DNA of 64,000 bases from Cenarchaeum sp. (lineage in GTDB: Archaea > Thermoproteota > Nitrososphaeria > Nitrososphaerales > Nitrosopumilaceae), in the NCBI GenBank assembly GCA_965212015.1, contig OZ243037.1, positions 544,001 through 608,000 on the forward strand, given 5' to 3'. A program made the position numbers and the translations under genes. The notes under the pieces were generated by a model, which was not told the DNA's origin, searched no databases, and saw only the letters and a program-made list of their open reading frames with translations. Shown one piece after another: positions 15,789-62,378 of the stretch. Position 1 is the stretch's first letter, and each line of letters begins with the position of its first letter.

Positions 15789-17060
15789 TCAGTACAGATA
15801 GCTTTGCAGTTTGATCTGCTCTTCTGTGCTGATCATGTTTTTGCTGGTAAGTATCTCCAACAGCTCCTTGAAGAGCATCTTTTGCTGCTCAGATAGTCCG
15901 CCTGCCGAGCCCTTGTCGCCGGGAGGACCAGGCGGACCCTTTGGGCCAGAAGCGCCCACGGTGCCCTGCTCGCCTTGCGGGCCGGACTCTCCGGGCGGGC
16001 CTGCATGGCCTGCCTGACCCTGCTCGCCCTGCGGTCCCTGCACCCCCTGGGGTCCCTGCGGGCCCTTGTCGCCAGGCGTGCCCTGGACTCCCCGCTCACC
16101 CTGAAGGCCGGCAGTACCCTGAGGCCCCTTGTCGCCGGAGGGGCCCGTGGGGCCGGTGAGTCCCTTGTCGCCCTGGCGTCCCGCCGGACCCTTGTCGCCT
16201 TTTTCACCCTGCGGGCCGGGAACGCCGGTGAGTCCCTTGTCGCCGGATTCGCCCTGTGAGCCCTGCGGCCCCTTGTCGCCGGTGGCACCCTGTGGACCTT
16301 TCGGGCCGGGCGGGCCTGGAATTCCCAGTATTCCCTTGTCGCCCGGAGATCCGACGGGGCCGGTCTCGCCTTTTGGGCCGGCAGGGCCGCGTTCTCCTCC
16401 AGTCCCCTTGTCGCCGGGCAGACCGGTCGGCCCCCTGCCGCCCTTGTCGCCGACTAGCCCGTGCGGGCCGGGCGGGCCCTTGTCGCCGGCAGAACCGGCA
16501 GGACCCTTGTCGCCCTTGTCACCGTGCGGGCCGGCAGGACCCTTGTCGCCCTTGTCACCCTTGTCGCCGGTAAGGCCCTTGGGGCCCACAGGACCCTTGT
16601 CGCCGGCGGGGCCGACAGGGCCTACCGTACCCTTGTCGCCGCGCGGCCCGGGAATCCCCCTGTTGCCGGAGGCAGGAATAGTTCTTTCAGGTTTTCTTGG
16701 CGGCTTGTCGATACGCGAGTCATCGCGCGGCTTTTCGGGGGCCTCCCCGCCTGCAAGCTTTATGTCAAAAACGGAATGCGCCTCGGAGAACTGGTCTAGC
16801 ACTATTATCCAGGCAGACGGCAGCTCAAAGACCTGCCTTGGGACGGGGTTTTTCTCGTCGCCTAGCACCTGGGCGAACATGCCGTCTTTGACGCGCAGGT
16901 GATAGCTCTCAGACCACAGCGAGGGAAATTTCTTGGAGGCAGCCTCTGCGGCCGACGGCTTTTTGGCGGCAATGTATACTGTTACCTCAAAGACCCCGGT
17001 CTGTCCGAATGGGGCCTTGCCGCGCACCTCCAATCTTGATTTAATGTCAGACATCACCAT
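15789..17060 (-). CDS. Collagen-like triple-helix protein
   Basis: About 85 uninterrupted Gly-X-Y triplets rich in GDK/GPx; globular N-domain ([20 protein letters not shown]) and short helical C-terminus. Confidence 0.9.
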
Positions 17061-51154: not shown

Positions 51155-52282
51155 TTGGACACGTCGTTTACCGTCACCCCGAGGTTTGCAGTAAAGATGC
51201 TAGAAAAGGCGCTGCGCCTGTACACGCCGTCGGGAGGCGAAAAGCTGCTGGCAGAGTTTCTTGCAGACAAGTGCGACGATTTGGGATTCGAGGACATTCA
51301 CATTGATGATGTCGGCAATATAATAGCAAAAAAGGGCTCCGGCAGCCCCAGGATAATGCTCTGCGGGCACATGGACGTGGTGCCAGGAAAGATAAGGGTG
51401 CGAAGGGACGGCGACAAGCTGTACGGAAGGGGCGCATCAGACGCAAAGGCACCATTGATGGCCATGCTTTTTGCCGCAGCATCCGTGCAGAACAACAACG
51501 GGACGGTGGTGTTTGTAGGCGCAGTAGACGAGGAGGGAAATGCGTCCGGCATAAAGCATCTGGCAAAGCAGGATCTGGGAATAGACTATGCCGTGTTCGG
51601 CGAGCCTAGCGGGATAAAGCGCGTCACCATAGCGTACAAGGGCCGCCTTGCAATCAACCTGAGGATCAGCGCAGAGGACAGCTCGCACGCAAGCGCGCCG
51701 TGGCTCTCAAAGAACGCAATCGAGGAGGCCGTAATGTTTTGCAGGGTGCTCAAGGAGGGTCTGGAGTCCGGACAGGAGGAGAGGAGCAGGGGCATGATGC
51801 TTACTGCCACTGTGACTAAAATCATGGGCGGGACCAGCCACAATGTGACGCCAAAGGAGTGCGAGGTAGTTCTGGACATCAGGGTTCCGGTGGACAATAC
51901 GTGCAAAAAGGTAGAAGAGACAGTATCCAGGATAGTCGAGAGGCTCTCACAGGAGAGGGGAGTCGAGGCGTTTTACTCCATTTTAGATGAGACAGAGCCC
52001 TTTGAGGCGCAGCACAACTCGCCTCTGGTGCGCGCCTTTGCACTCGGCATAAGGGAGGTCGAAAACGACCACCATACGCTGATTCGAAAGACCGGTACGG
52101 GTGACATGAACGTGATAGGAAACCACCTGAAAATCCCAGTAGTCACGTATGGTCCTGGGGATCCGCACGAGGCGCACACCATAAGCGAAAAGGTGTCAAT
52201 AGACGAGTACCTGCGCGGAATCGAGGTGTTAAAAAAGACGCTGCACCACCTAAAGAGGCTGCACGACAAGGAAATAAAGTGA
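51155..52282 (+). CDS. lysK: [LysW]-lysine/ornithine hydrolase (M20 family)
   Basis: GHMDVV, GRGASDAK, DEEG, GEPS, KTGTGDMN, YGPGD. Confidence 0.9.
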   Translation: MDTSFTVTPRFAVKMLEKALRLYTPSGGEKLLAEFLADKCDDLGFEDIHIDDVGNIIAKKGSGSPRIMLCGHMDVVPGKIRVRRDGDKLYGRGASDAKAPLMAMLFAAASVQNNNGTVVFVGAVDEEGNASGIKHLAKQDLGIDYAVFGEPSGIKRVTIAYKGRLAINLRISAEDSSHASAPWLSKNAIEEAVMFCRVLKEGLESGQEERSRGMMLTATVTKIMGGTSHNVTPKECEVVLDIRVPVDNTCKKVEETVSRIVERLSQERGVEAFYSILDETEPFEAQHNSPLVRAFALGIREVENDHHTLIRKTGTGDMNVIGNHLKIPVVTYGPGDPHEAHTISEKVSIDEYLRGIEVLKKTLHHLKRLHDKEIK

Positions 52283-52475
52283 CACCGCCGGATTCGGTAC
52301 GTTTTGCCGGCAGGCATCAGGCACGTCTCGCACCAGGATGCAACATTTGAAATTTGTCGCATGCAGTGAAATCAGATAACGGGCGAGAAATGCCCCAAAA
52401 AGTCATGAAAAAACCGCATTTGGAATAATTCATTCAGATTGATACAAATAATCCGATTGGCTCTAACTGGGTATT

Positions 52476-55400
52476 ATGCAGGGAGACGGTGCCGGCCTAT
52501 ACAACAAACTCCAGGGCTATCAGAACAAGCTGCTCCAGCTCACGGCATCCAACAGATGCATTTGCATCAGAAAGTTATACAGCAAGCACAGCTTTGACCT
52601 GTCCAGATTGCTAGAGGGCAACTCAAAGCAGATAGACGAGCTAGTCAGGCAGTCATTTAAGCGTAAAAAACCAGTCTGCATACTCCCGGACTCGGATGAT
52701 TCCGAAAAGGCAGTTGTAATGAGAAGGCACTTGAAGACCCTGTCCCGAAACATCAAACAGTCCGAAGACGAGACTGGATCCCAGTACTGCTATTTTGGAT
52801 TTCCCTTTCTGGAAGGGCATGTCACCGCAGAGTATTATGTCAGGGGCCCGTTGGCATTATTTCCGATATCCATCTATTACGGATATGCGCAAAACAAGAT
52901 GGGGTGGTGCATAAAGTTTCTGGATCAAAACCCAATCTACAACCACACATTGTTTACTGCCCTTGAAAAGTTAGGAAACTACAAGGTGCAGGAATCATTC
53001 GAGTCCGATTTCGAGGACATGGTGACAAGCCTTACGGCTACGGAATTTGAAGCCGAATTTACCCAAAAAATTTTACAGTTATTAAAAAACAACAGGCTGC
53101 CCATAAGCCCGCCCGATCCCGAACAGGAAAGTTCCGACGATGCGAGTAGCTTTTCTACACCGCCATTAAGGGATATGACAAAAGTCAATATCGAGGATTT
53201 GGAAAAAAAGCCGCTGAGAATCATCGATTACAAGATAGTCGGCAGTTTCCCGCAGGGGGACAGCGCGATTTATCACGATTATGAGAGCCTGATTTCCAAG
53301 GTAAAAAACGGGGAATTCAGCGACTTTATTGCCGACCTGCTCGCCGAAATGGATACGCCGCCGAAATATGCGGAAAGCGACAATGTCGACATTGAGGATC
53401 TTGACGGCACCCGCGATGTGAATTTTGATCTTATCTTGCCCAGTGACTCGTCCCAGGACAAGGTGGTACTGGCATCCCAGCACGAAAAGATTACCATAGT
53501 GAGGGGGCCTCCGGGAACAGGAAAATCACAGGTAATAGTAAACATAATTGCAAACGCGCTCTCAAAGGGGCAGAAAATACTCGTCGTCTGCCAGAAAAGG
53601 ACGGCGTTGGAGGTGGTCCACCAGAGGCTGGGCGAAAAAAATCTAGACCAGTACACGGTTCTGTTGAACAAGGAAAAGGAAGATCGAGCAAAAATGTACC
53701 ATCAGATAAAGCAGATTCTTGACAAGACGGGCAGCTCTGCCAGGTACAACCACCTGCAGCTCCAGAGCGTCTCAGACGATATCGACAGGCTCATAATAAA
53801 ACACTCAAAGATTTTTCGTGCGCTATCCAAAGAGTATTTCGGGGGGACGACAATCAGGGATCTTTATGCAAACACGTCGTCGGATTATGCAAGAAAGCTG
53901 GATCTAGGCGGAATTGTGGACAGGGTTCAATCCACGGACTTGGGCAATTTTCTTTACAGCATATCGCAGATCGAGGACAGCTATAAAAAATTCGAAGACG
54001 ACGGCCACCCCTGGAAAAACAGGAAGGATTTTGCAGGCATGAGTGCAATCAGCAAGAACAAAATCAGGGAAATTCTGTCAGGCGTTCTCACAAAGGCAGA
54101 AAACTGCGTGATTTTTCCGGACAGGCAAAAACAGGGCGTGGTAAACGATCTTGTCAAAAAGCACGCCTCGTTAAAATCGGATCTGAAAGAAATTGAGGCA
54201 AAAATATCCAAGTGTACCGAATCCATCAGGGCGATTTCAAACCCACACAACACGCCCATACCGCTGGCAAATTTGGATGAGCTCATCAATTGTGTTAATG
54301 CGGGAATGATTCTGTGGGACAGGTTCCGCGATTACGATAGAATCATTCAGATTACAAAAGACAGGATCGTCATGGACGACTATACAGAACAGACCGATTT
54401 GCTCGAGGCATTCTCCAACCCGGCGGAAAAAACATCGTTCTGGAAAAAACTCACCGATTCGGAGGCAAAAAGAAAGGACAAGCTCAAAAAGGAATTCGAT
54501 GAGAATCCGGACAATTCCGCCAAGACCCACGGGGAGCTCAAAGGCCTGCTTGAAAACGGGCTTGAGCTGTGGAATGCGGCGCGCGATCATCAGGGCCTGA
54601 AAAAATATATTTTTGAAAAGGCCTTTTTGCTGAATGATGACGGCGAGCAAGGCCACCTGCTCAAGGAGCTCAGGACGCTAAACGATCTTCGGATAGATCT
54701 CAAGCACAAGTCGGATCAGTCACACGCAGATGTAAAATCCATGCAAGAGCTTTTCGGGGATTCCGAAATATATTTTGACAGAAACGAGGATGTGCAACAG
54801 TTAGTTCTCAGAATCACCAACGGCGCAGGCATGATAGACCAGGTTGACTCCCTTTCAGAGTTTGTTACGGATGCCGAGATTTCCGCAATCAATGCCAAAC
54901 TCCCGGATATTGGCGAATTGGTGTCCCATATTAGGAATTTGAACGATAGTCTGGGCGACTTTGACATGCTGCAGTCATACGACATCAAAAAATCCGATTT
55001 AAGCGACGATCAGCGGGCAATTCTGGGCCAGTGCCTGTCAGTACTGTCCAAGGGTGAGGACTGGAACGAGATCATCAGGCAGGAAATCTATCACCACTGG
55101 ATCGAGGCAATAGAGCAGGACAATTTGGTGTTGCGAGAGGGCTTTGGCGACTACAAGCAGAATCAGGAACGACTGGCATCACTAATGGAGAAAAAATCGG
55201 ACTTGATCGTAGAAAAGATAATAGACGCGATTGAAACACACGCAAATTTCAAGCCGGGAATGGGAAACAGGAGAACAAAAAGAGAGGTGGAATACAGCGA
55301 GTTGAACCACCAATTGGGCAGGAAAAGAAACGTAAAGCCGGTCAGAAAGATTTTCGAGGAATTCGAACACATCCTGCTGGATATAGTCCCATGCTGGCTT

Positions 55401-56750
55401 GCATCCCCGGACATGGTTTCAAACATATTTCCGCTCGAGGAGAACATGTTTGATCTGGTTATAGTCGACGAGGCCAGCCAGCTTGCAGCGGAAAGGGCGC
55501 TGCCGTTTTTGTACAGGGGGGAGCGGATAGTCATTGCAGGCGATGAAAAACAGCTAAAGCCGCACGACTTGTTTCAGATAAAGGGCGAGGAGGACGAGGA
55601 GGAATACGAGGAGATCAACATAGAGAGCCTGCTCCTTTTGGCAAAAAAGCGAGGCTATACGCACATTACGCTCCAGTGGCACTATAGATCAAAATGGCAA
55701 GAGTTGATCGATTTTTCCAATCATGCGTTTTATAACGACATGCTCCAGGTCTCGCCAAACGCGCAGATCAAGACGCCGTCGCCCCCAATCGAATGGGTGG
55801 ACTGTCCCAAGGGAATGTGGGAGAACCGGGCAAACGTCACCGAGGCAGCAAAGGTCACAGACGTCCTGTATGAAATCCTGCAAAAGTATGACGGCAGAGA
55901 GACGCCGACGATTGGAATGATCACGTTCAACATCAGTCAAAAAGAAGAGATTCTAAACAGGATTGACGCCAAAAGAAAGGAGGATCCTGTGTTTGATCAA
56001 CTGTACGGAAACGTCGAGAATCCCGCAAGCGGCAGGAAGGACGACGAGGTTTTTGTACGGCCCATCGAGAACGTCCAGGGCGACGAGAGGGACATTATAA
56101 TATTTTCAGTCGGATACGCAAAGGATTTTGAGGGCAAATTTCGCCTGCAATTCGGCTCGTTGAGCGGCGATGGCGGAGAGAACCGGCTGAACGTGGCAAT
56201 CACCCGTGCAAGCAAAAAGATTATCGTCGTATGCTCCATTGATCCGCGCGACATGAAGGTGGATAGTACAAAAAATCCAGGCCCAAAGCGCCTCAAGGAT
56301 TTTCTCATGTATGCAAACGCAGTCAGCAACGGGGATAAAGACAGGATTACGCAGATTTTGGAATCCCTCAGCTCCGGAATGAACACCATACGACAGAGGC
56401 CAAAGCATTTTGACAGCGAGTTTGAGGAGCTCGTCCACGACAGGCTCGAGGCCGAGGGCTATTCCGTCAATACCCAGGTCGGCCAGTCAGGATACAGGAT
56501 AGATCTTGCAATAGTGCACCCGAATGACTCCGGAAGGTATGTCCTGGGCATAGAGTGCGACGGGGCGATGTTTCACTCTGGAAAGAGCGTGCGAGAGCGC
56601 GACGTCACCCGACAGCAGTTTCTGGAACGGCGCGGCTGGAAGATCGACAGGATTTGGAGCAGGAGCTGGTGGAAAAACCCGGGTGCGGAAATCCAGCGCA
56701 TAAAGAAAAAAGTCGAATCACTGGTGCAAGAGGATTCCAGGGCAGGATAG
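52476..56750 (+). CDS. DUF4011 + split SF1 (AAA_11/AAA_12) helicase + Vsr/DUF559-like nuclease (Hhe-like defence protein)
   Basis: N-terminal NKLL.L...N, GPPGTGKSQ, VDEASQ, GDEKQL, HYRS, ENVQGDERD, NRLNVAITRA, FDSEFE...YRIDL...IECDG...RD..RQ..LE..GW...RIWS. Confidence 0.9.
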   Translation: MQGDGAGLYNKLQGYQNKLLQLTASNRCICIRKLYSKHSFDLSRLLEGNSKQIDELVRQSFKRKKPVCILPDSDDSEKAVVMRRHLKTLSRNIKQSEDETGSQYCYFGFPFLEGHVTAEYYVRGPLALFPISIYYGYAQNKMGWCIKFLDQNPIYNHTLFTALEKLGNYKVQESFESDFEDMVTSLTATEFEAEFTQKILQLLKNNRLPISPPDPEQESSDDASSFSTPPLRDMTKVNIEDLEKKPLRIIDYKIVGSFPQGDSAIYHDYESLISKVKNGEFSDFIADLLAEMDTPPKYAESDNVDIEDLDGTRDVNFDLILPSDSSQDKVVLASQHEKITIVRGPPGTGKSQVIVNIIANALSKGQKILVVCQKRTALEVVHQRLGEKNLDQYTVLLNKEKEDRAKMYHQIKQILDKTGSSARYNHLQLQSVSDDIDRLIIKHSKIFRALSKEYFGGTTIRDLYANTSSDYARKLDLGGIVDRVQSTDLGNFLYSISQIEDSYKKFEDDGHPWKNRKDFAGMSAISKNKIREILSGVLTKAENCVIFPDRQKQGVVNDLVKKHASLKSDLKEIEAKISKCTESIRAISNPHNTPIPLANLDELINCVNAGMILWDRFRDYDRIIQITKDRIVMDDYTEQTDLLEAFSNPAEKTSFWKKLTDSEAKRKDKLKKEFDENPDNSAKTHGELKGLLENGLELWNAARDHQGLKKYIFEKAFLLNDDGEQGHLLKELRTLNDLRIDLKHKSDQSHADVKSMQELFGDSEIYFDRNEDVQQLVLRITNGAGMIDQVDSLSEFVTDAEISAINAKLPDIGELVSHIRNLNDSLGDFDMLQSYDIKKSDLSDDQRAILGQCLSVLSKGEDWNEIIRQEIYHHWIEAIEQDNLVLREGFGDYKQNQERLASLMEKKSDLIVEKIIDAIETHANFKPGMGNRRTKREVEYSELNHQLGRKRNVKPVRKIFEEFEHILLDIVPCWLASPDMVSNIFPLEENMFDLVIVDEASQLAAERALPFLYRGERIVIAGDEKQLKPHDLFQIKGEEDEEEYEEINIESLLLLAKKRGYTHITLQWHYRSKWQELIDFSNHAFYNDMLQVSPNAQIKTPSPPIEWVDCPKGMWENRANVTEAAKVTDVLYEILQKYDGRETPTIGMITFNISQKEEILNRIDAKRKEDPVFDQLYGNVENPASGRKDDEVFVRPIENVQGDERDIIIFSVGYAKDFEGKFRLQFGSLSGDGGENRLNVAITRASKKIIVVCSIDPRDMKVDSTKNPGPKRLKDFLMYANAVSNGDKDRITQILESLSSGMNTIRQRPKHFDSEFEELVHDRLEAEGYSVNTQVGQSGYRIDLAIVHPNDSGRYVLGIECDGAMFHSGKSVRERDVTRQQFLERRGWKIDRIWSRSWWKNPGAEIQRIKKKVESLVQEDSRAG

Positions 56751-56755
56751 CAAAA

Positions 56756-57430
56756 ATGAAAGCAAAGACCGGCTATGCATTGCTTTTGATTTTTCTAATA
56801 TTGTTAATTGCCGTGCATATAGTGTTTCTCCCGATATTTTTCATCATGCTTGTCGTCATTGCAGCTTATCAAGCTAAAAAAAGTAGAGAGGTAAAAAAGA
56901 AAAAGAAAACACGCAATGTGGATCCGGTCCAAGAGAATAAACCAGATGCCGAAAATGACTCCAAAGCTTACCCCCCGGAACAGGTGAAATCCGCTTCTGC
57001 CATAAGCACAAACAGTACGAATGATACGGATGATGAGATTGCCGAGGCCGAATATTATGACAGTGCGGATCATAAATTCGGCATCTATCACAAGACGGAT
57101 CATGATATGGAGTCATTCTCAAAGGACGCCTTGGCATACAATACGGGGCATCCAGAATCGGCAGAAAAAACATTCAAAAAAGATTATTGGGCGCTAGACT
57201 GGAATGACAGTCCACAGTACAAGCAGCACAAGTTTTTGGAGGCCATAGAATTCTGCGAAAAGAACAATCTTGGAAGCAAGTCCAAGATCAGAAGGTTGAG
57301 GACAAAGATTGAGAGGTGGGGCATAGTAAACGAGAGAGACGAGGATGCGCTATTGTCAGACTATGAACACCTTGTGGAATTGATAGAGTTTTTTGGGCGC
57401 AAGCCCGTCGATTCGGATCAAAATGACTAG
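56756..57430 (+). CDS. Hypothetical membrane-anchored protein
   Basis: Long hydrophobic N-terminus followed by a basic patch; starts 5 nt after the helicase stop. Confidence 0.7.
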   Translation: MKAKTGYALLLIFLILLIAVHIVFLPIFFIMLVVIAAYQAKKSREVKKKKKTRNVDPVQENKPDAENDSKAYPPEQVKSASAISTNSTNDTDDEIAEAEYYDSADHKFGIYHKTDHDMESFSKDALAYNTGHPESAEKTFKKDYWALDWNDSPQYKQHKFLEAIEFCEKNNLGSKSKIRRLRTKIERWGIVNERDEDALLSDYEHLVELIEFFGRKPVDSDQND

Positions 57431-57524
57431 CGTGCATGCTTGCGGGTGTTTTCTTGGATGTTTTTGACCCTGCCCACCTGCCCGTCCTTTAATCTTACCT
57501 TTATTCCGTGCGGGTGTGATTCAC

Positions 57525-58622
57525 TATACTGACGCTCAAAAATAATTTCGCCTACTGAACAATTTTGAACAGAAAAGTATAAGGATCAGCGGTTCTAGGC
57601 AATTATCATGATCAAAACATCACTCATGGAGGCCATAAAGTCTGAAAAAAACGTCAAAATACACAAGAAACTGATTGCAGTCAATTTGGTACGTAGTAAG
57701 GGATGTTCCACAAGCTTTGCTGCCGAATCAGTCGGCGTCACACAGCGTTCTGTACAGTTGTGGCTGGAATATTTCGACAATGATGGAATAGAAGGTCTCA
57801 GGACTCTGCCGCAGGAGGGCAGGCCTCCTCTTGTACCGCGCATTAGAATTAAGAAAATGGCAAAGAGGTTGTGTAATAAAGGAAAGCTTACACCAAAAAA
57901 GCTTCAAAGAAAAATCTACAATAAATACAGGGTCAAATACAGCATGTGCAACATTCGAAAAATCCTGAATTGGTTTAATTATACATTAAAGGCCTCAACA
58001 CGAACATACGTCAAGGCAAGCAGCAAGTCGGAATGCACAAGGTGGCGAAACGAGAATTTGCCGGATATTTTACGCATGGAAGGGCAAGGATTTACAGTTG
58101 TAATCCAGGACGAGTCCATTTTTGTACATGATTCTATGGCAGGGAAAAAATATTGGTCGTTGCGGGGTGAAAGAATTCCCATAAAAAGTACCGGATCCCA
58201 CACGAAAATTATCGTATATGGTGCGCTAGCAGGTAATGGCTCACAACTGTTCCGATTATATCCAAAGTTTAACGGCGAAACGTTTGTACAATATCTTGAG
58301 GATATGCGGCTCAAATGGAAAAAAGTTCTAGTCATTGTGGACAATGCATCTCAGCACAGATCTAGTGACGTAAAAGAATACCTGAAGAAGCACAAGGACG
58401 TCATCCTGTATTATCTTCCGACATATTCACCGCAACTCAGTGCCATCGAAGAGTGCTGGCGACAGGCCAAGTACGAGCTAGTCCATTCCGAATATTACGA
58501 GACTGCAGAGAAAATGTGGATTACAGTATCAGAGTATTTCAGAAACAAAAGATTCAATCTGGACATCTATCGCTATTTAGAGCGCAGTCTGTGAGGCGAA
58601 ATAACTTATGATCGACGGAGTA
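57525..58622 (+). mobile_element. IS630-family insertion sequence
   Basis: Imperfect terminal IRs (TACTGACGCTCAAAAATAATTTCGCCT vs reverse complement TACTCCGTCGATCATAAGTTATTTCGCCT) with TA at both ends. Confidence 0.8.
57608..58594 (+). CDS. IS630 transposase (HTH + DDE)
   Basis: QDES, VDNASQH, LPTYSPQLSAIEECW; single uninterrupted frame. Confidence 0.93.
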   Translation: MIKTSLMEAIKSEKNVKIHKKLIAVNLVRSKGCSTSFAAESVGVTQRSVQLWLEYFDNDGIEGLRTLPQEGRPPLVPRIRIKKMAKRLCNKGKLTPKKLQRKIYNKYRVKYSMCNIRKILNWFNYTLKASTRTYVKASSKSECTRWRNENLPDILRMEGQGFTVVIQDESIFVHDSMAGKKYWSLRGERIPIKSTGSHTKIIVYGALAGNGSQLFRLYPKFNGETFVQYLEDMRLKWKKVLVIVDNASQHRSSDVKEYLKKHKDVILYYLPTYSPQLSAIEECWRQAKYELVHSEYYETAEKMWITVSEYFRNKRFNLDIYRYLERSL

Positions 58623-59060
58623 GACGTCAGGATTGCATCTATTACGCCCACGGTAAACCTGCCTGTCCCCTGATCGATTTTTGTCTCAATTGAGACGCAT
58701 ATTCCCTTGCTGATCTGGGATCTTGCTGGAACTCTTGACATGCACCGGATGCGCATATTTGGGATTTAAGTGCAACTATCAAACTCGCAAGATTCGACCT
58801 AATGCTCGTCGGATGTTATGGCGGTAAAAATTGAAGAATGATGGCAGAAAAGATCATGAAAAGGGCCCATAGTCACATTAGCCCAAGGTCATTCAGCCAC
58901 GATGATGACACCGAAGCCCCAAGGGATTCAACATATGGGTAACGGACGTCAGTACGGACGGTATATTATTCTGTCGTCGAATATCCCCGCTTTTGCCCGA
59001 ATAAGGGGGGTTTTTCCGGCAACAGATCTGCTTTTATTTTACGGATACCATAAAAATCAA

Positions 59061-59960
59061 ATGGATTATTCAGGGCTGGAGCATTTCATTCATAGAAAAA
59101 TGAGAATGACCCACATTTACCAGCCGCTGATGATAAGGACCCTGCTAGAGGCAGACGACAATACTGCCACCGTAGAAGAGATTGCAAGGAAGTTTTTGAA
59201 CAGTGACGATTCGCAGCTAAACTATTACAAGAAAATTGCAAAGAGGTGGCCGCACATAACCCTGAAAAAACACAATATTGTAAGCTACAAAAAGGGCAGG
59301 TATACGCTGCTAATTGACGAAAGGCTCTCATCCGAGGAAAAAACCCGGCTCTTGGAGCTGTGTGATCTCAGATTAAACGAGTTCGTCGACAAGGATCCCT
59401 GGATTCAACAGATACGCAAGCTCGAAGACCTGTCACCCAGCAAGAGTCTCCGGTATGATATATTTTCAAAATCAAAGGGCGTGTGCATCGCATGCGGGGC
59501 AAGACCACCCCAGGTCTCGCTGCACGTGGATCACATCATGCCAGTATCCCGCGGCGGACTCACAGAACCGAGCAACCTGCAGGCGCTATGCTACAAGTGC
59601 AATACACAAAAAAGAGACCGCGATGATTTGGATTTTCTTAGGTGGCACAAGCGGCTACAGTTCCGGCACGTAAAATGCCCCCTCTGCAACGAAAAAGACA
59701 GTATCAGGTCGAATAATCTGGCATATGCAATCAGGGCAAGGGATCCCGTCGCCGAGATGCATTCGATGGTCATACCGAACAGACACGTAAACTCGTTCAT
59801 GGACTTGATTCCCGCAGAAAAGCAGCTCTGCCTTGCACTGGTAGACGAGATTACTGACGAGATTAAAAAGATCAATCCAAAGACGGACGGATTCCAGATA
59901 TCCGGGCTTGATGGAAGACACGAGGAGCACTGCAGCATCAATATAATTCCAAAAGAGTGA
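59061..59960 (+). CDS. HNH endonuclease fused to a HIT-like domain
   Basis: MRMTHIYQPLMI N-domain; CIACG..LHVDHIMP.SRGG....NLQALC..CN..K; CPLC...D..PV...H..VIP.RH. Confidence 0.85.
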   Translation: MDYSGLEHFIHRKMRMTHIYQPLMIRTLLEADDNTATVEEIARKFLNSDDSQLNYYKKIAKRWPHITLKKHNIVSYKKGRYTLLIDERLSSEEKTRLLELCDLRLNEFVDKDPWIQQIRKLEDLSPSKSLRYDIFSKSKGVCIACGARPPQVSLHVDHIMPVSRGGLTEPSNLQALCYKCNTQKRDRDDLDFLRWHKRLQFRHVKCPLCNEKDSIRSNNLAYAIRARDPVAEMHSMVIPNRHVNSFMDLIPAEKQLCLALVDEITDEIKKINPKTDGFQISGLDGRHEEHCSINIIPKE

Positions 59961-60117
59961 ACCGCCAAGTCTTGTAAAAATCCAGAATTGACCAGAATGA
60001 TTGCTCCGCACTCACATGAGCCCAAGGATTCACTATCTCAGATAGCCCAAGGGATTCGAGCACGGCTTGCTTGCAGTACGTTATGGGAGTATAATAATCT
60101 TGTCGGTTATTTTACGT

Positions 60118-60173
60118 AACAGGTTAGGTTCAAGAGGGATGTTTGGATCTACGGGCACGGAACCTAACCAGTT
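60118..60173. promoter_or_regulatory. 14-bp inverted repeats enclosing a 28-bp segment upstream of the antitoxin promoter
   Basis: aacaggttaggttc (60118-60131) / gaacctaaccagtt (60160-60173), 13/14 complementary. Confidence 0.7.
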
Positions 60174-60223
60174 GCTTTTTCCATACGTAAACCTTTAAAT
60201 TTTAACACAGTCAGTGCTTGTAC

Positions 60224-60379
60224 ATGACACTAAGATATGTGGCACCCCTAAACGACGAGCAGTGGAAGATACTGACGGACGCACTAAAGGCAGGCCCCAC
60301 GCCAGAGCAGAGAGAGTTTGTGAAAAAAGCAGTAGAGCTCTTTAAAGACCAAAAAGAATACATAGAGAAAAAAGACTAG
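60224..60379 (+). CDS. 51-aa putative antitoxin, copy 1 (DUF1778/TacA C-terminal-like)
   Basis: MTLRYVAPLNDEQWKILTDALKAGPTPEQREFVKKAVELFKDQKEYIEKKD; TATA-like cctttaaa upstream. Confidence 0.7.
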   Translation: MTLRYVAPLNDEQWKILTDALKAGPTPEQREFVKKAVELFKDQKEYIEKKD

Positions 60380-60388
60380 AAACCCATG

Positions 60389-60570
60389 ATTACCACGGTG
60401 TAAAAGCCGTGGCCCCATTGAAGCATTATCGATCTGGAAGATTGAATTGAACACCAGTTAGGTTACCACGGTGTAAAAGCCGTGGCCCCATTGAAGCATT
60501 ATCGATCTGGAAGATTGAATTGAACACCAGTTAGGTTACCACGGTGTAAAAGCCATGACCTCATCAAAGC
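60389..60570 (+). CRISPR. Orphan CRISPR mini-array: three 36-bp repeats, two identical 37-bp spacers
   Basis: Repeats at 60389-60424, 60462-60497 and degenerate 60535-60570. Consensus GTTACCACGGTGTAAAAGCCGTGGCCCCATTGAAGC, with CCACGG/CCGTGG hairpin and ATTGAAGC 3' end (type I-G/I-U-like). Spacer ATTATCGATCTGGAAGATTGAATTGAACACCAGTTAG occurs twice. Confidence 0.85.
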
Positions 60571-60705
60571 ACGAAAAATCCTGACGGTTTTTCCAGTAGC
60601 CGATCAGATCCCGTGCCTGCGGATCCAAACATCCCTCTGGAACCTAACCGGTTGCTTTTTCCATACGTGTAAACCCTTAAATTTGTACGCCATCAGTACC
60701 AGCAC

Positions 60706-60861
60706 ATGACACTAAGATATGTGGCACCCCTAAACGACGAGCAGTGGAAGATACTGACTGACGCACTAAAGGCGGGCCCCACTCCAGCGCAGAGACGCAC
60801 TGTGAAAAAAGCAGTAGAGCTCTTTAAAGACCAAAAAGAATACATAGAGAATAAAGACTAG
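60706..60861 (+). CDS. 51-aa putative antitoxin, copy 2
   Basis: MTLRYVAPLNDEQWKILTDALKAGPTPAQRRTVKKAVELFKDQKEYIENKD; 6 nt upstream of the GNAT gene. Confidence 0.75.
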   Translation: MTLRYVAPLNDEQWKILTDALKAGPTPAQRRTVKKAVELFKDQKEYIENKD

Positions 60862-60867
60862 AAACCC

Positions 60868-61374
60868 ATGCCTGATAAGGACGACATTTTATTCAACAAG
60901 ATTCGCTTTACAAAATTGTCCAACACGCATGTCGGATTGTCCGATTTCAAGTGCTCAAATTCGAAATTTGCAGAATATCTTGCAGTAAGCGCATTGTACG
61001 ATCAGGCAGAAAAAATCGGGCAAACGTGGCTTTTTACCTATGAGGGAAAAATAATCGGATTTATCACAATTGCAATGGCACATATGGAAAAAAACAGACA
61101 CATACAGACTGACACGTTTGGAAACATTCCTGCATTGCTGATCGGCCATCTGGCCACACACAAGGACTATGAGCGCAAGGGCGTCGGCCAACACATGATA
61201 TCCTGGGCCGCTAGCAAGGCAACAGAGTTATCTGAGACTATCGGATGCCGGGTAGTAATGCTCAATCCCGAAAAAGACGCCGTAAAATTCTATGAAAAGC
61301 TAAACTTCAAGCACATTCCACACACAGACGAGAAATACGACAGCATGTTTCTAGATGTCAAGCAGGTCGAATAA
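60868..61374 (+). CDS. GNAT acetyltransferase, TacT/AtaT-like toxin
   Basis: FKCSN...YL, IIGFITI, IPALLIGHLA....RKGVG, GCRVV.L, AVKFYEKLNF. Confidence 0.85.
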   Translation: MPDKDDILFNKIRFTKLSNTHVGLSDFKCSNSKFAEYLAVSALYDQAEKIGQTWLFTYEGKIIGFITIAMAHMEKNRHIQTDTFGNIPALLIGHLATHKDYERKGVGQHMISWAASKATELSETIGCRVVMLNPEKDAVKFYEKLNFKHIPHTDEKYDSMFLDVKQVE

Positions 61375-61431
61375 CAACGGATTGCACCCATGCGTAAAAA
61401 TTGCATGCTTTTCACGAATCCATAAAGGAGA

Positions 61432-61505
61432 TGGGCCCGACGAGCTTCGATCTCGTGGCTCACCGATTATGAGTCGGTTACTCTACCAAGCTGAGTTACG
61501 GGCCC
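61432..61505 (-). tRNA. tRNA with CAT anticodon, most likely tRNA-Ile2
   Basis: GGGCCCG acceptor stem, ACCGA-CTCATAA-TCGGT anticodon arm, ACGAG/CTCGT T stem. GGGCCC start is typical of archaeal Ile tRNAs. Confidence 0.9.
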
Positions 61506-61549
61506 CCAATCAGGACAGGCTTGCGCCTATGTATAAAACGTTACACGCG

Positions 61550-62185
61550 CTAACAGTACGCCTCATAGCAGCCATCAAGCAGCAAATTCTGCGCCGATAT
61601 CGACGCCTCTGCTGCCCGCACCAGCTTTTCTGTGCCGGCCCCGGAATCCTCAAGCATGCCACTCCACGAGGCCGCATGCCTTACGTCTGCCTCCATGTGC
61701 AGCCTAAAGTACTGCGTGGCCTCATCACCGTCAATGCCGTAAAACCTCTCAAGGCCCTCAAGCTTTGTCTGGCTGATTATTGGAATCTCCTTTTCAAAGG
61801 CATACATTGCGCACACGCCGCAGTCATAGTCCTCTGCCAGCACGGACAGGTCGCCTAGCGCCCGTACAGTCTGCGGCAGCGCCTCATGACCGTACAGCGA
61901 GTCACAATCGACTCCCAGTGCCCCCGCAAAGCGCACCCAGTGTACGATGTGATCGCACTCCTCCTGCCGGTTTGCGGCAAGCTCGTCGTGCATGTGCCCT
62001 GGCGCATCCCGGAGAATGGGCGACATTAGCCCGGGAACTGCCCTCACAAGGTGGAAATATTCCTTTGAATACCCCGCAAGCGACTCGCGTGTCAGCTTGC
62101 CGTCTGACCACATTTCATAGAACGGGTGCTTTAGCAGGCTGCGCCGCTCAATCATTGCGTCTATCGTCCCTATTATGCCCATCAT
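61550..62185 (-). CDS. CADD/PqqC/TenA heme-oxygenase-like diiron protein
   Basis: LLKHPFY..W..GKL, EE..H, YAFE, KLEGL..FYG, YF.LH..AD..H. Confidence 0.85.
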   Translation of the reverse strand: MMGIIGTIDAMIERRSLLKHPFYEMWSDGKLTRESLAGYSKEYFHLVRAVPGLMSPILRDAPGHMHDELAANRQEECDHIVHWVRFAGALGVDCDSLYGHEALPQTVRALGDLSVLAEDYDCGVCAMYAFEKEIPIISQTKLEGLERFYGIDGDEATQYFRLHMEADVRHAASWSGMLEDSGAGTEKLVRAAEASISAQNLLLDGCYEAYC

Positions 62186-62265
62186 ACCCACCCCCATACG
62201 CGCCATTAAAAAAATCTTTGTTGTTTCAAAAGGGTTTTAAGGACATTTTTGCCCGTGCAAAACGT

Positions 62266-62359
62266 GCTCCTGTGGTGTAGTCCGGTCAAGCATACTGCCC
62301 TTTCAAGGCAGTGATCCCGGGTCCAAAATCAAACGATGGAAATCCCGGCGGGAGCACCA
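62266..62359 (+). tRNA. tRNA-Glu(TTC) with 15-nt non-canonical intron at 59/60 and encoded CCA
   Basis: GCTCCTG...CTGCC-CTTTCAA-GGCAG...CCGGG TCCA AAA TC AAAC GA TGGA AAT CCCGG CGGGAGC ACCA; BHB geometry places the intron at 62328-62342. Confidence 0.9.
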
Positions 62360-62378
62360 AGGTTTAATTACCAACTGT

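Follow-up and report, generated by a model that had tools for sequence, protein, structure and literature searches.

A type I-G CRISPR mini-array without cas genes, probably a leftover, in the toxin position of a duplicated small-protein/GNAT unit of Cenarchaeum sp.

Analysis of 64,000 nucleotides (nt) from Cenarchaeum sp. (assembly GCA_965212015.1, contig OZ243037.1, positions 544,001 to 608,000 of the forward strand; hereafter the window, in whose own numbering positions are given) identified a short CRISPR array that occupies the place of the toxin gene in one copy of a duplicated unit, the other copy of which consists of a small antitoxin-like open reading frame (ORF) and a GNAT acetyltransferase. 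We consider it probable that this is a genuine type I-G mini-array, stranded without cas genes, and that it is a leftover and not a working immune cassette. This interpretation builds on the anatomy of the locus, the family of its repeats, the absence of cas genes from the host genome, a conserved toxin-antitoxin (TA) module and the recurrence of the array junctions in other samples, all of which are shown.

The host genome consists of one contig of 1,764,220 bp with 51% GC and a completeness of 99.74%. Within the window, a promoter region, an ORF of 51 amino acids (aa) and the motif 'gaaacccATG' are present twice as a direct duplication (60159-60388 and 60639-60870, approximately 90% identical), where 60159-60188 and 60639-60668 share 97% identity and 60187-60388 and 60669-60870 share 90%. 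Both small ORFs (copy 1, 60224-60379; copy 2, 60706-60861; both on the + strand) are intact and differ at 10 of 156 nt, corresponding to 3 synonymous and 4 non-synonymous codons. Copy 1 is antitoxin-like according to the alignment of its family (A1) and a complex model and has no toxin gene, and copy 2 is likewise antitoxin-like. Homology between the two units ends at the ATG (60386 in unit 1, 60868 in unit 2). In unit 2 this ATG opens a GNAT acetyltransferase of 168 aa (60868-61374, + strand), a TacT/AtaT-like candidate toxin with matches to Pfam Acetyltransf_7/1/10, while in unit 1 it is fused to the array and continues as ATG ATT ACC ACG GTG TAA (60386-60403, + strand), a frame of five codons (MITTV, then a stop) that enters the first repeat.

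The array itself, all on the + strand, comprises repeat 1 (36 nt, 60389-60424), a spacer of 37 nt (60425-60461), repeat 2 (36 nt, 60462-60497), a second and identical copy of the spacer (60498-60534) and a degenerate terminal repeat (60535-60570) with 5 substitutions, two of which fall in the 3' arm of its hairpin. An initial annotation of this DNA had described the duplicated promoter, ORF and 'gaaacccATG', the GNAT behind copy 2, the repeat-spacer-repeat-spacer-repeat order behind copy 1, the five-codon frame and a junction lying exactly at the toxin ATG, and all of these elements are present as described; the layout of the repeats was also correct apart from a small detail, as repeat 1 begins with A and repeats 2 and 3 begin with G. 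Behind the array, GGTTTTTCC (60586-60593, + strand) forms an oligo-T run with T5 at 60588-60592 that may mark the end of a transcript. TATA-like boxes precede the small ORFs of unit 1 (60193-60203) and unit 2 (60675-60685), both on the + strand and each approximately 26 nt before the ATG. An A/T box at approximately 24-32 nt before the small-ORF ATG keeps its position in the two window copies and across 26 related loci, and this box would be the promoter of a leaderless archaeal mRNA.

Several properties of the array place its repeats in the type I-G family. The array has a period of 73 with 100% matches over 2.3 copies (Tandem Repeats Finder, TRF, score 330), and a doubled 37-nt spacer was obtained in 0 of 100 shuffles, therefore chance is excluded as its origin. 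Repeats 1 and 2 are intact and form perfect hairpins, each with a 7-bp stem (CCACGGT/GCCGTGG) followed by CCCC and then by an 8-nt ATTGAAGC handle. According to PMC9638904 (this and the other cited papers are used here in extract), a type I-G repeat is 36 nt long, cleavage by Csb2 falls 4 nt 3' of its 7-bp stem so that an 8-nt 5' handle remains, and the protospacer-adjacent motif (PAM) is TTN. The geometry of the window repeats matches the processing given in that extract on the + strand only.

A degenerate pattern of stem and handle was scanned against viral contigs and species-representative genomes. It matched 4 viral contigs and at least 120 loci in species-representative genomes, mostly from Planctomycetota and Nitrospira with some archaea, and among the matches listed the nearest repeats differ from the window repeat at 5 of 37 positions. 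Type I-G cas genes adjoin the array in all three loci examined out of these at least 120 (L053, L010 and L016), where 9 of the 10 proteins scanned beside the arrays match I-G models, namely Cas4g/Cas1g, Csb2, Cas7g, Cas3g and a Cas3-extension protein. The window repeats are, by these sequence criteria, genuine members of the type I-G family in + orientation, which upholds the initial proposal that they resemble type I-G and are read in this direction, both for the fit to the geometry in the extract of PMC9638904 and for the I-G cas genes that adjoin arrays of the same family.

The strict pattern matched one of 400 other genomes of the family Nitrosopumilaceae (G158) and was missing from the remaining 399; the G158 array is genuine and its stem covaries, with CCGCGG where the window has CCACGG. 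Under a relaxed pattern, I-G-type arrays were found in 5 of 10 genomes of the sister genus to which G158 belongs, with Csb2 near the arrays in 4 of these 5 genomes, a result that doubles as a positive control of the Csb2 model. With this relaxed pattern, such arrays were seen in none of the 4 further genomes from the genus of the window. At up to 3 mismatches the window repeat matched 0 of 60 relatives. A metagenome contig scan for the source of the exact repeat returned 3 loci, all of which were unrelated arrays in DNA of 57-72% GC, and Rfam gave only sub-threshold matches to CRISPR-DR16 on the + strand (E 0.39 and 0.7). The Cas-linked I-G array of G158 also holds one spacer twice (L158 1679-1715 and 1895-1931), therefore spacer duplication is not peculiar to the orphan array.

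Two of the viral contigs, from IMG/VR, were viewed individually. One carries a solitary I-G-family repeat followed by a terminator-like hairpin (L004 10759-10790, - strand) and the other a two-repeat I-G-family mini-array (L005 1200-1300, - strand). These are precedents for type I-G repeats on mobile elements.

The initial annotation had supposed that the array borrows a Cascade encoded elsewhere, which is not supported by the complete one-contig host genome. Models of Cas1, Csb2, Cas7g, Cas2, Cas6 and DevR-type Cas7 gave 0 matches in it, and cas3_core gave only 5 helicase matches, all of them below the cut-off, as are the matches that this model also gives in 14 of 14 control genomes. When the translations of 14 ORFs beside I-G-family repeats (L053, L010 and L068), six of which had matched I-G Cas models, were compared with the host genome by tblastn, the best E value was 0.011. 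The repeat was found nowhere else in the genome at up to 8 substitutions beyond its 3 places in the locus, nor the spacer at up to 10 substitutions beyond its 2 places, and a k-mer scan for spaced repeats flagged other periodic regions, none of which contains the window repeat. The alternative offered with the initial annotation, that the array arose by ectopic Cas1-Cas2 integration at the toxin start, is also unlikely. Ectopic integration duplicates a local target sequence as a pseudo-repeat and would not create bona fide I-G repeats.

The array contains one distinct spacer, present twice, and the search for its target among genome and viral sequences, as had been suggested initially, returned no full target and no seed with an adjoining PAM. 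Two 20-mers covering the spacer had 0 matches in viral contigs; blastn against phages gave 11 records, all partial and at chance level (best E 2); and 0 of 100 relatives matched when every sixth base was left free and up to 3 mismatches were allowed. Two candidates were set aside. The best 5' seed in the host genome (14 nt, in a flavoprotein-like coding region) is flanked by GTG and not by TTN and was judged to be a chance match. By eye, the 5' end of the spacer resembled the GNAT 3' end in reverse complement, but this likeness was not sustained, as the best ungapped comparison with the flanks and 29 GNAT loci reached 24 of 37 positions, where 30 shuffles reached 21-25.

The unit that was duplicated is itself conserved beyond the window. 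Relatives of the GNAT, in which the region of the acetyl-CoA motif R-x-x-G-x-G is nearly invariant (alignment A2), were found in 52 of 401 family genomes, a set that takes in the host genome and one unpublished genome (G281), and at 28 of 29 related loci the GNAT is immediately preceded by a small-ORF homologue. The best solved relatives of the GNAT (E 2.8e-9 to 2e-3) are 9ilr, 7f37, 7f36, 7ak7, 7ak8, 5fvj and 6ajm/6ajn, which we take to be GNAT toxins of TA pairs. The small ORFs form a family of 46-52 aa with the conserved core MALREVKPL..QW..LK.GPT, and the profile of this family gave weak matches (E 0.057-0.12) to the C-terminal part of the DUF1778 chains 6gtq_C, 6ajn_C and 6ajm_C.

A model of the complex between the GNAT and the small ORF, run with copy 2 of the latter as the first row, scored 0.76 (0.75-0.76 over three runs) against 0.00 for the best control, with the runs agreeing in at least 81% of contacts and a predicted local distance difference test (pLDDT) value of at least 79 for the partner. 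Of 80 solved complexes 58 reach the mark set for this score, as do 2 of 110 mismatched pairs; because our own alignments were used here, these counts hold only roughly. The model supports binding of the small ORF to the GNAT, and its pass may reflect likeness, as complexes of this kind have already been solved. The pair is best described from its sequences as a conserved two-gene module of the TacT/AtaT-like TA type, an identification already made for the GNAT in the initial annotation and in agreement with the conserved small partner, the solved relatives and the complex model. TacAT, AtaRT and KacAT are modules of a GNAT toxin and a DUF1778 antitoxin, and the window pair resembles them in that a small partner gene comes before a GNAT of approximately 170 aa; binding within the window pair is supported by the complex model. 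The window partner differs from theirs in that it has only 46-52 aa, has no match among Pfam, NCBIfam or PADLOC models and shows no recognisable ribbon-helix-helix (RHH) DNA-binding half, and this partner is a candidate for a conserved antitoxin, as yet unannotated, that would lack the usual DNA-binding half.

The host genome holds a second intact pair of small ORF and GNAT. It also holds an orphan homologue of the small ORF (46 aa; C1:1533365-1532900, - strand), behind which lie an N-terminal stub of a GNAT (52 aa) and a transposase-like ORF, therefore modules that lose the toxin and keep the antitoxin are a recurrent outcome in this genome. One contig of 1,790,915 nt carries the sequences most closely related to the GNAT (80%) and to the small ORFs (88% and 80%). 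When a sister-genus Csb2 was compared with the protein collection, none of the best 120 of 1722 matches was on a contig of this length. The nearest named protein relative is from Nitrosopumilus sp.

Our preferred reading would thus run as follows. The upstream unit of a tandemly duplicated small-protein/GNAT module would have kept its promoter and antitoxin and lost its toxin, and a type I-G array, once part of a larger locus or else a mobile mini-array, would have come to lie behind the orphan antitoxin through rearrangement or loss. Transcription from the antitoxin promoter probably continues across the array to the T-run behind the last repeat, and the transcript would be neither cut into CRISPR RNA (crRNA) nor used for interference in this host, as the cell has no Csb2 or Cascade to process it. 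That the array is a decaying relic is suggested by its degenerate last repeat, its single doubled spacer and the lack of a target in the searches described above.

A number of observations weigh against this reading, many of which come from a comparison of positions 59000-62300 with contigs of four public sequencing runs from two studies, where X1 and X2 may derive from the source sample and X3 and X4 belong to the other study. A 111-nt contig of X4 (60340-60450, 5 differences) runs from the end of the antitoxin through the ATG and repeat 1 into the spacer, and contigs of 176-179 nt from X3 and X4 (60494-60668, 9-15 differences) join the spacer, the degenerate repeat and the downstream sequence. 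A 307-nt variant contig in X1 connects 60361-60423 to 60535-60724 by 38 other letters, equivalent to one different spacer of approximately 37 nt, and its downstream part is approximately 89% identical to the window (21 differences and 2 gaps). The arrangement therefore predates diverged lineages and is one of several haplotypes at a variable site, and its varied spacer content could reflect maintenance or use. The junction is moreover exact at the toxin ATG, which would seldom result from a random deletion; the first two repeats are intact, and everything that one crRNA would need in cis is present; and as type I-G systems occur in the same family, Cas could be supplied in trans after transfer.

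The exact junction, the intact repeats and the differing spacers in diverged haplotypes together keep alive the explanation that the locus is a guide-only cassette, in which the antitoxin promoter drives the mini-array and the crRNA is used by I-G effectors of a co-resident element or of recipient strains. The neighbouring TA pair would then stabilise the cassette, which would serve in competition between mobile elements or in extended host immunity. This explanation is consistent with cis elements that are intact and correctly oriented, with an array directly behind a promoter-bearing gene and a T-run after its last repeat, with the same junction in contigs of two studies and a variant carrying another spacer, with I-G systems in the family, and with Cas-less arrays on thaumarchaeal integrated elements that are thought, in the extract of PMC6563490, to work with host Cas. 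It has to be set against a complete host genome without Cas, repeat arrays in none of the four same-genus genomes and a strict pattern missing from all but one of the other family genomes, a sister-genus I-G stem that reads CCGCGG and not CCACGG, and a single distinct spacer with no target found, and on this balance we regard it as unlikely. In an extension of this explanation, the head formed by promoter and antitoxin in this TA family would be a modular expression unit with exchangeable cargo, which in this lineage captured an I-G mini-array instead of the toxin. Diverged strains would have preserved the resulting TA-anchored, Cas-less guide cassette, its junction unchanged and its spacers differing between haplotypes, and it would supply crRNA to I-G effectors in trans; we hold this to be distinctly doubtful.

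Explanations in which the RNA acts without guiding interference appear weaker. The hairpins may serve as a 3' stabiliser, a processing site, a terminator or an insulator between the antitoxin genes and so tune the dosage of antitoxin against the single GNAT. The predicted transcript does contain two strong 7-bp hairpins, with a z-score of -2.46 and an equally good fold in 2 of 200 shuffles, the additional antitoxin is intact and the junction is conserved across lineages; however, the fold signal is weak, any hairpin would serve and I-G repeats would not be required, a variable spacer speaks against a sequence-specific RNA, and we know of no precedent for a Cas-independent RNA role of this kind, which we consider very unlikely. 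Alternatively, repeat RNA from the island that carries the locus may titrate Csb2 or Cas7 of I-G hosts in the manner of an RNA anti-CRISPR, thereby shielding the island on transfer. The solitary I-G-family repeats and two-repeat mini-arrays on viral contigs (L004 and L005) and the viral crRNA-like RNAs that compete for Cas, as reported in the extract of 10.1101/2024.10.29.618823, are in line with such a decoy, but no attachment (att) repeat of the tRNA was found, so that mobility of the island is a presumption, the present host has no I-G system and expression is likewise presumed; the decoy is in our view highly improbable.

An assembly artefact or chimera is the least credible explanation and we give it hardly any weight. 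No single short-read contig covers the entire stretch, and an exact 73-nt tandem duplication is beyond the reach of 31-mer unitigs, but each junction is bridged: by the X4 contig over 60340-60450, by an X1 contig over 60525-60733 with 0 differences, and by the X3 and X4 contigs over 60494-60668. In the variant contig of X1, the end of the antitoxin and repeat 1 are connected with the degenerate repeat and the sequence onward to 60724, and X3 and X4 come from a different study than X1 and X2. The bridged junctions and the variant spacer in X1 therefore indicate that the layout is neither a misassembly nor unique to this assembly, both of which figured among the refuting outcomes in the initial annotation, and the junctions recur in contigs of the second study.

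Further contigs revealed other arrangements at this site. Contigs of X3 and X4 contain a joint between repeat 2 (60496; for X4 additionally 60462) and the GNAT 3' end on the opposite strand (61360 and 61322), and in X2 repeat 2 is joined through 33 other letters to the end of tRNA-Met at 61432. The same 30-nt loose end follows 'gaaaccc' in both X2 and X4 (60385 / 60867) in place of ATG-GNAT or ATG-array, and this shared sequence suggests a third kind of cargo behind the antitoxin.

Comparison with known systems identified partial likenesses. The stand-alone arrays described on integrated elements of Thaumarchaeota (PMC6563490) are, in the extract used, of type I-B, with 69-96 spacers and a repeat in common with the Cas-bearing array of the host. 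The window array resembles them in having no adjacent cas genes, in belonging to the accessory or integrated DNA of an ammonia-oxidising archaeon and in being read as derived from a Cas-linked array by cas loss, whereas it differs from what is given there in its type (I-G), its one distinct spacer, the lack of a cognate array or cas genes and its fusion to a TA promoter and antitoxin. With the mini-arrays of viruses and plasmids, as far as these are covered in the extracts of PMC6858448 and PMC9071438, it shares one or two spacers and the absence of cas genes. Those mini-arrays rely on Cas encoded elsewhere, sit on elements infecting Cas-positive hosts and have spacers that match rivals, while for the window array neither such a host nor such a match was found and its element is not a proven mobile one. 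In CreTA (PMC9458426 and PMC10097628, also in extract) a TA module is likewise physically coupled to CRISPR repeats outside a normal array. The CreTA toxin and antitoxin are, however, RNAs located inside cas loci, and CreA needs Cascade and partly matches the toxin promoter, whereas the window module is a protein pair in a genome without Cascade, and neither that genome nor the TA locus offers a partial, PAM-flanked match to the spacer; CreTA would accordingly offer only a loose analogy. In the literature, consulted mostly at abstract level, no account was found of a CRISPR array standing where the toxin gene of a protein TA module would be, in agreement with the initial annotation, which knew of no such array with a protein GNAT pair.

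The locus lies at one end of a low-GC island (43-49% GC from approximately 52000 to 61400, in comparison to approximately 55%), the edge of which is marked by tRNA-Met (61432-61505, - strand). The remainder of the island (52476-59960, + strand) encodes a Hhe/PDC-S37/ProA-like helicase-nuclease of 1424 aa, a 291-aa ORF, an IS630-family transposase and a protein combining HNH and HIT domains. The 1424-aa protein (52476-56750) contains DUF4011, an SF1 helicase and REase_MTES_1575, has anti-phage relatives in PDC-S37, Hhe and ProA (with E values as low as 7e-192, though the matches stay below NCBIfam cut-offs) and has homologues at approximately 70% DNA identity in 4 of 4 same-genus genomes. The IS630/DDE_3 transposase (57608-58594) has copies elsewhere that are 100% identical (for example C1:232156-234094), therefore this insertion sequence (IS) is probably active, and the 352-aa protein (58902-59960) is an HNH endonuclease domain fused to a C-terminal HIT domain. 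The island is situated at a synteny break, its left and right flanks being unlinked in same-genus genomes (66-76% DNA identity). A search of the window for an att site found that repeats of the tRNA-Met region do not exceed 13 nt, the island proteins that were scanned included no integrase, and a comparison with plasmids gave no match. From its gene content and position the region is read as a putative defence island at a rearrangement hot spot.

One copy of a palindromic element lies before each antitoxin unit, and the two copies have opposite orientations. The copy directly upstream of unit 1 (60116-60170, + strand) spans approximately 54 nt, with 14-nt inverted arms around 28 nt, and the inverted second copy (60609-60653, - strand) lies upstream of unit 2; the 59-nt inverted repeat in the window is due to these two opposed copies. 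The element is dispersed over 19 further places in the genome in both orientations (for example C1 361481, 893114, 952187, 979055, 1132780 and 1458940), and it resembles a repetitive extragenic palindromic (REP) sequence or a miniature inverted-repeat transposable element (MITE).

Two other features of the window are recorded here. A tRNA-like sequence with an encoded CCA end (62266-62360), missed by ARAGORN and below threshold in Rfam (23.2 bits, E 0.008), is probably a tRNA with an intron near the T-arm, and its anticodon loop reads by eye as TTC (Glu). At 16405-16649, TRF detected tandem repeats of 9, 18 and 36 nt that are rich in CCC/GGC and have a collagen-like coding periodicity.

In summary, if the array is a relic, as we think probable, it would be a clean case of CRISPR arrays outliving their cas genes in defence islands and would show the loss of a toxin gene with persistence of its antitoxin. 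Type I-G would also be added to the orphan arrays of ammonia-oxidising archaea, which in the extract of PMC6563490 are of type I-B. If the guide is instead used in trans, the locus would be the first protein TA unit found to drive a CRISPR guide, and may provide an example of immunity information kept separate from its machinery.

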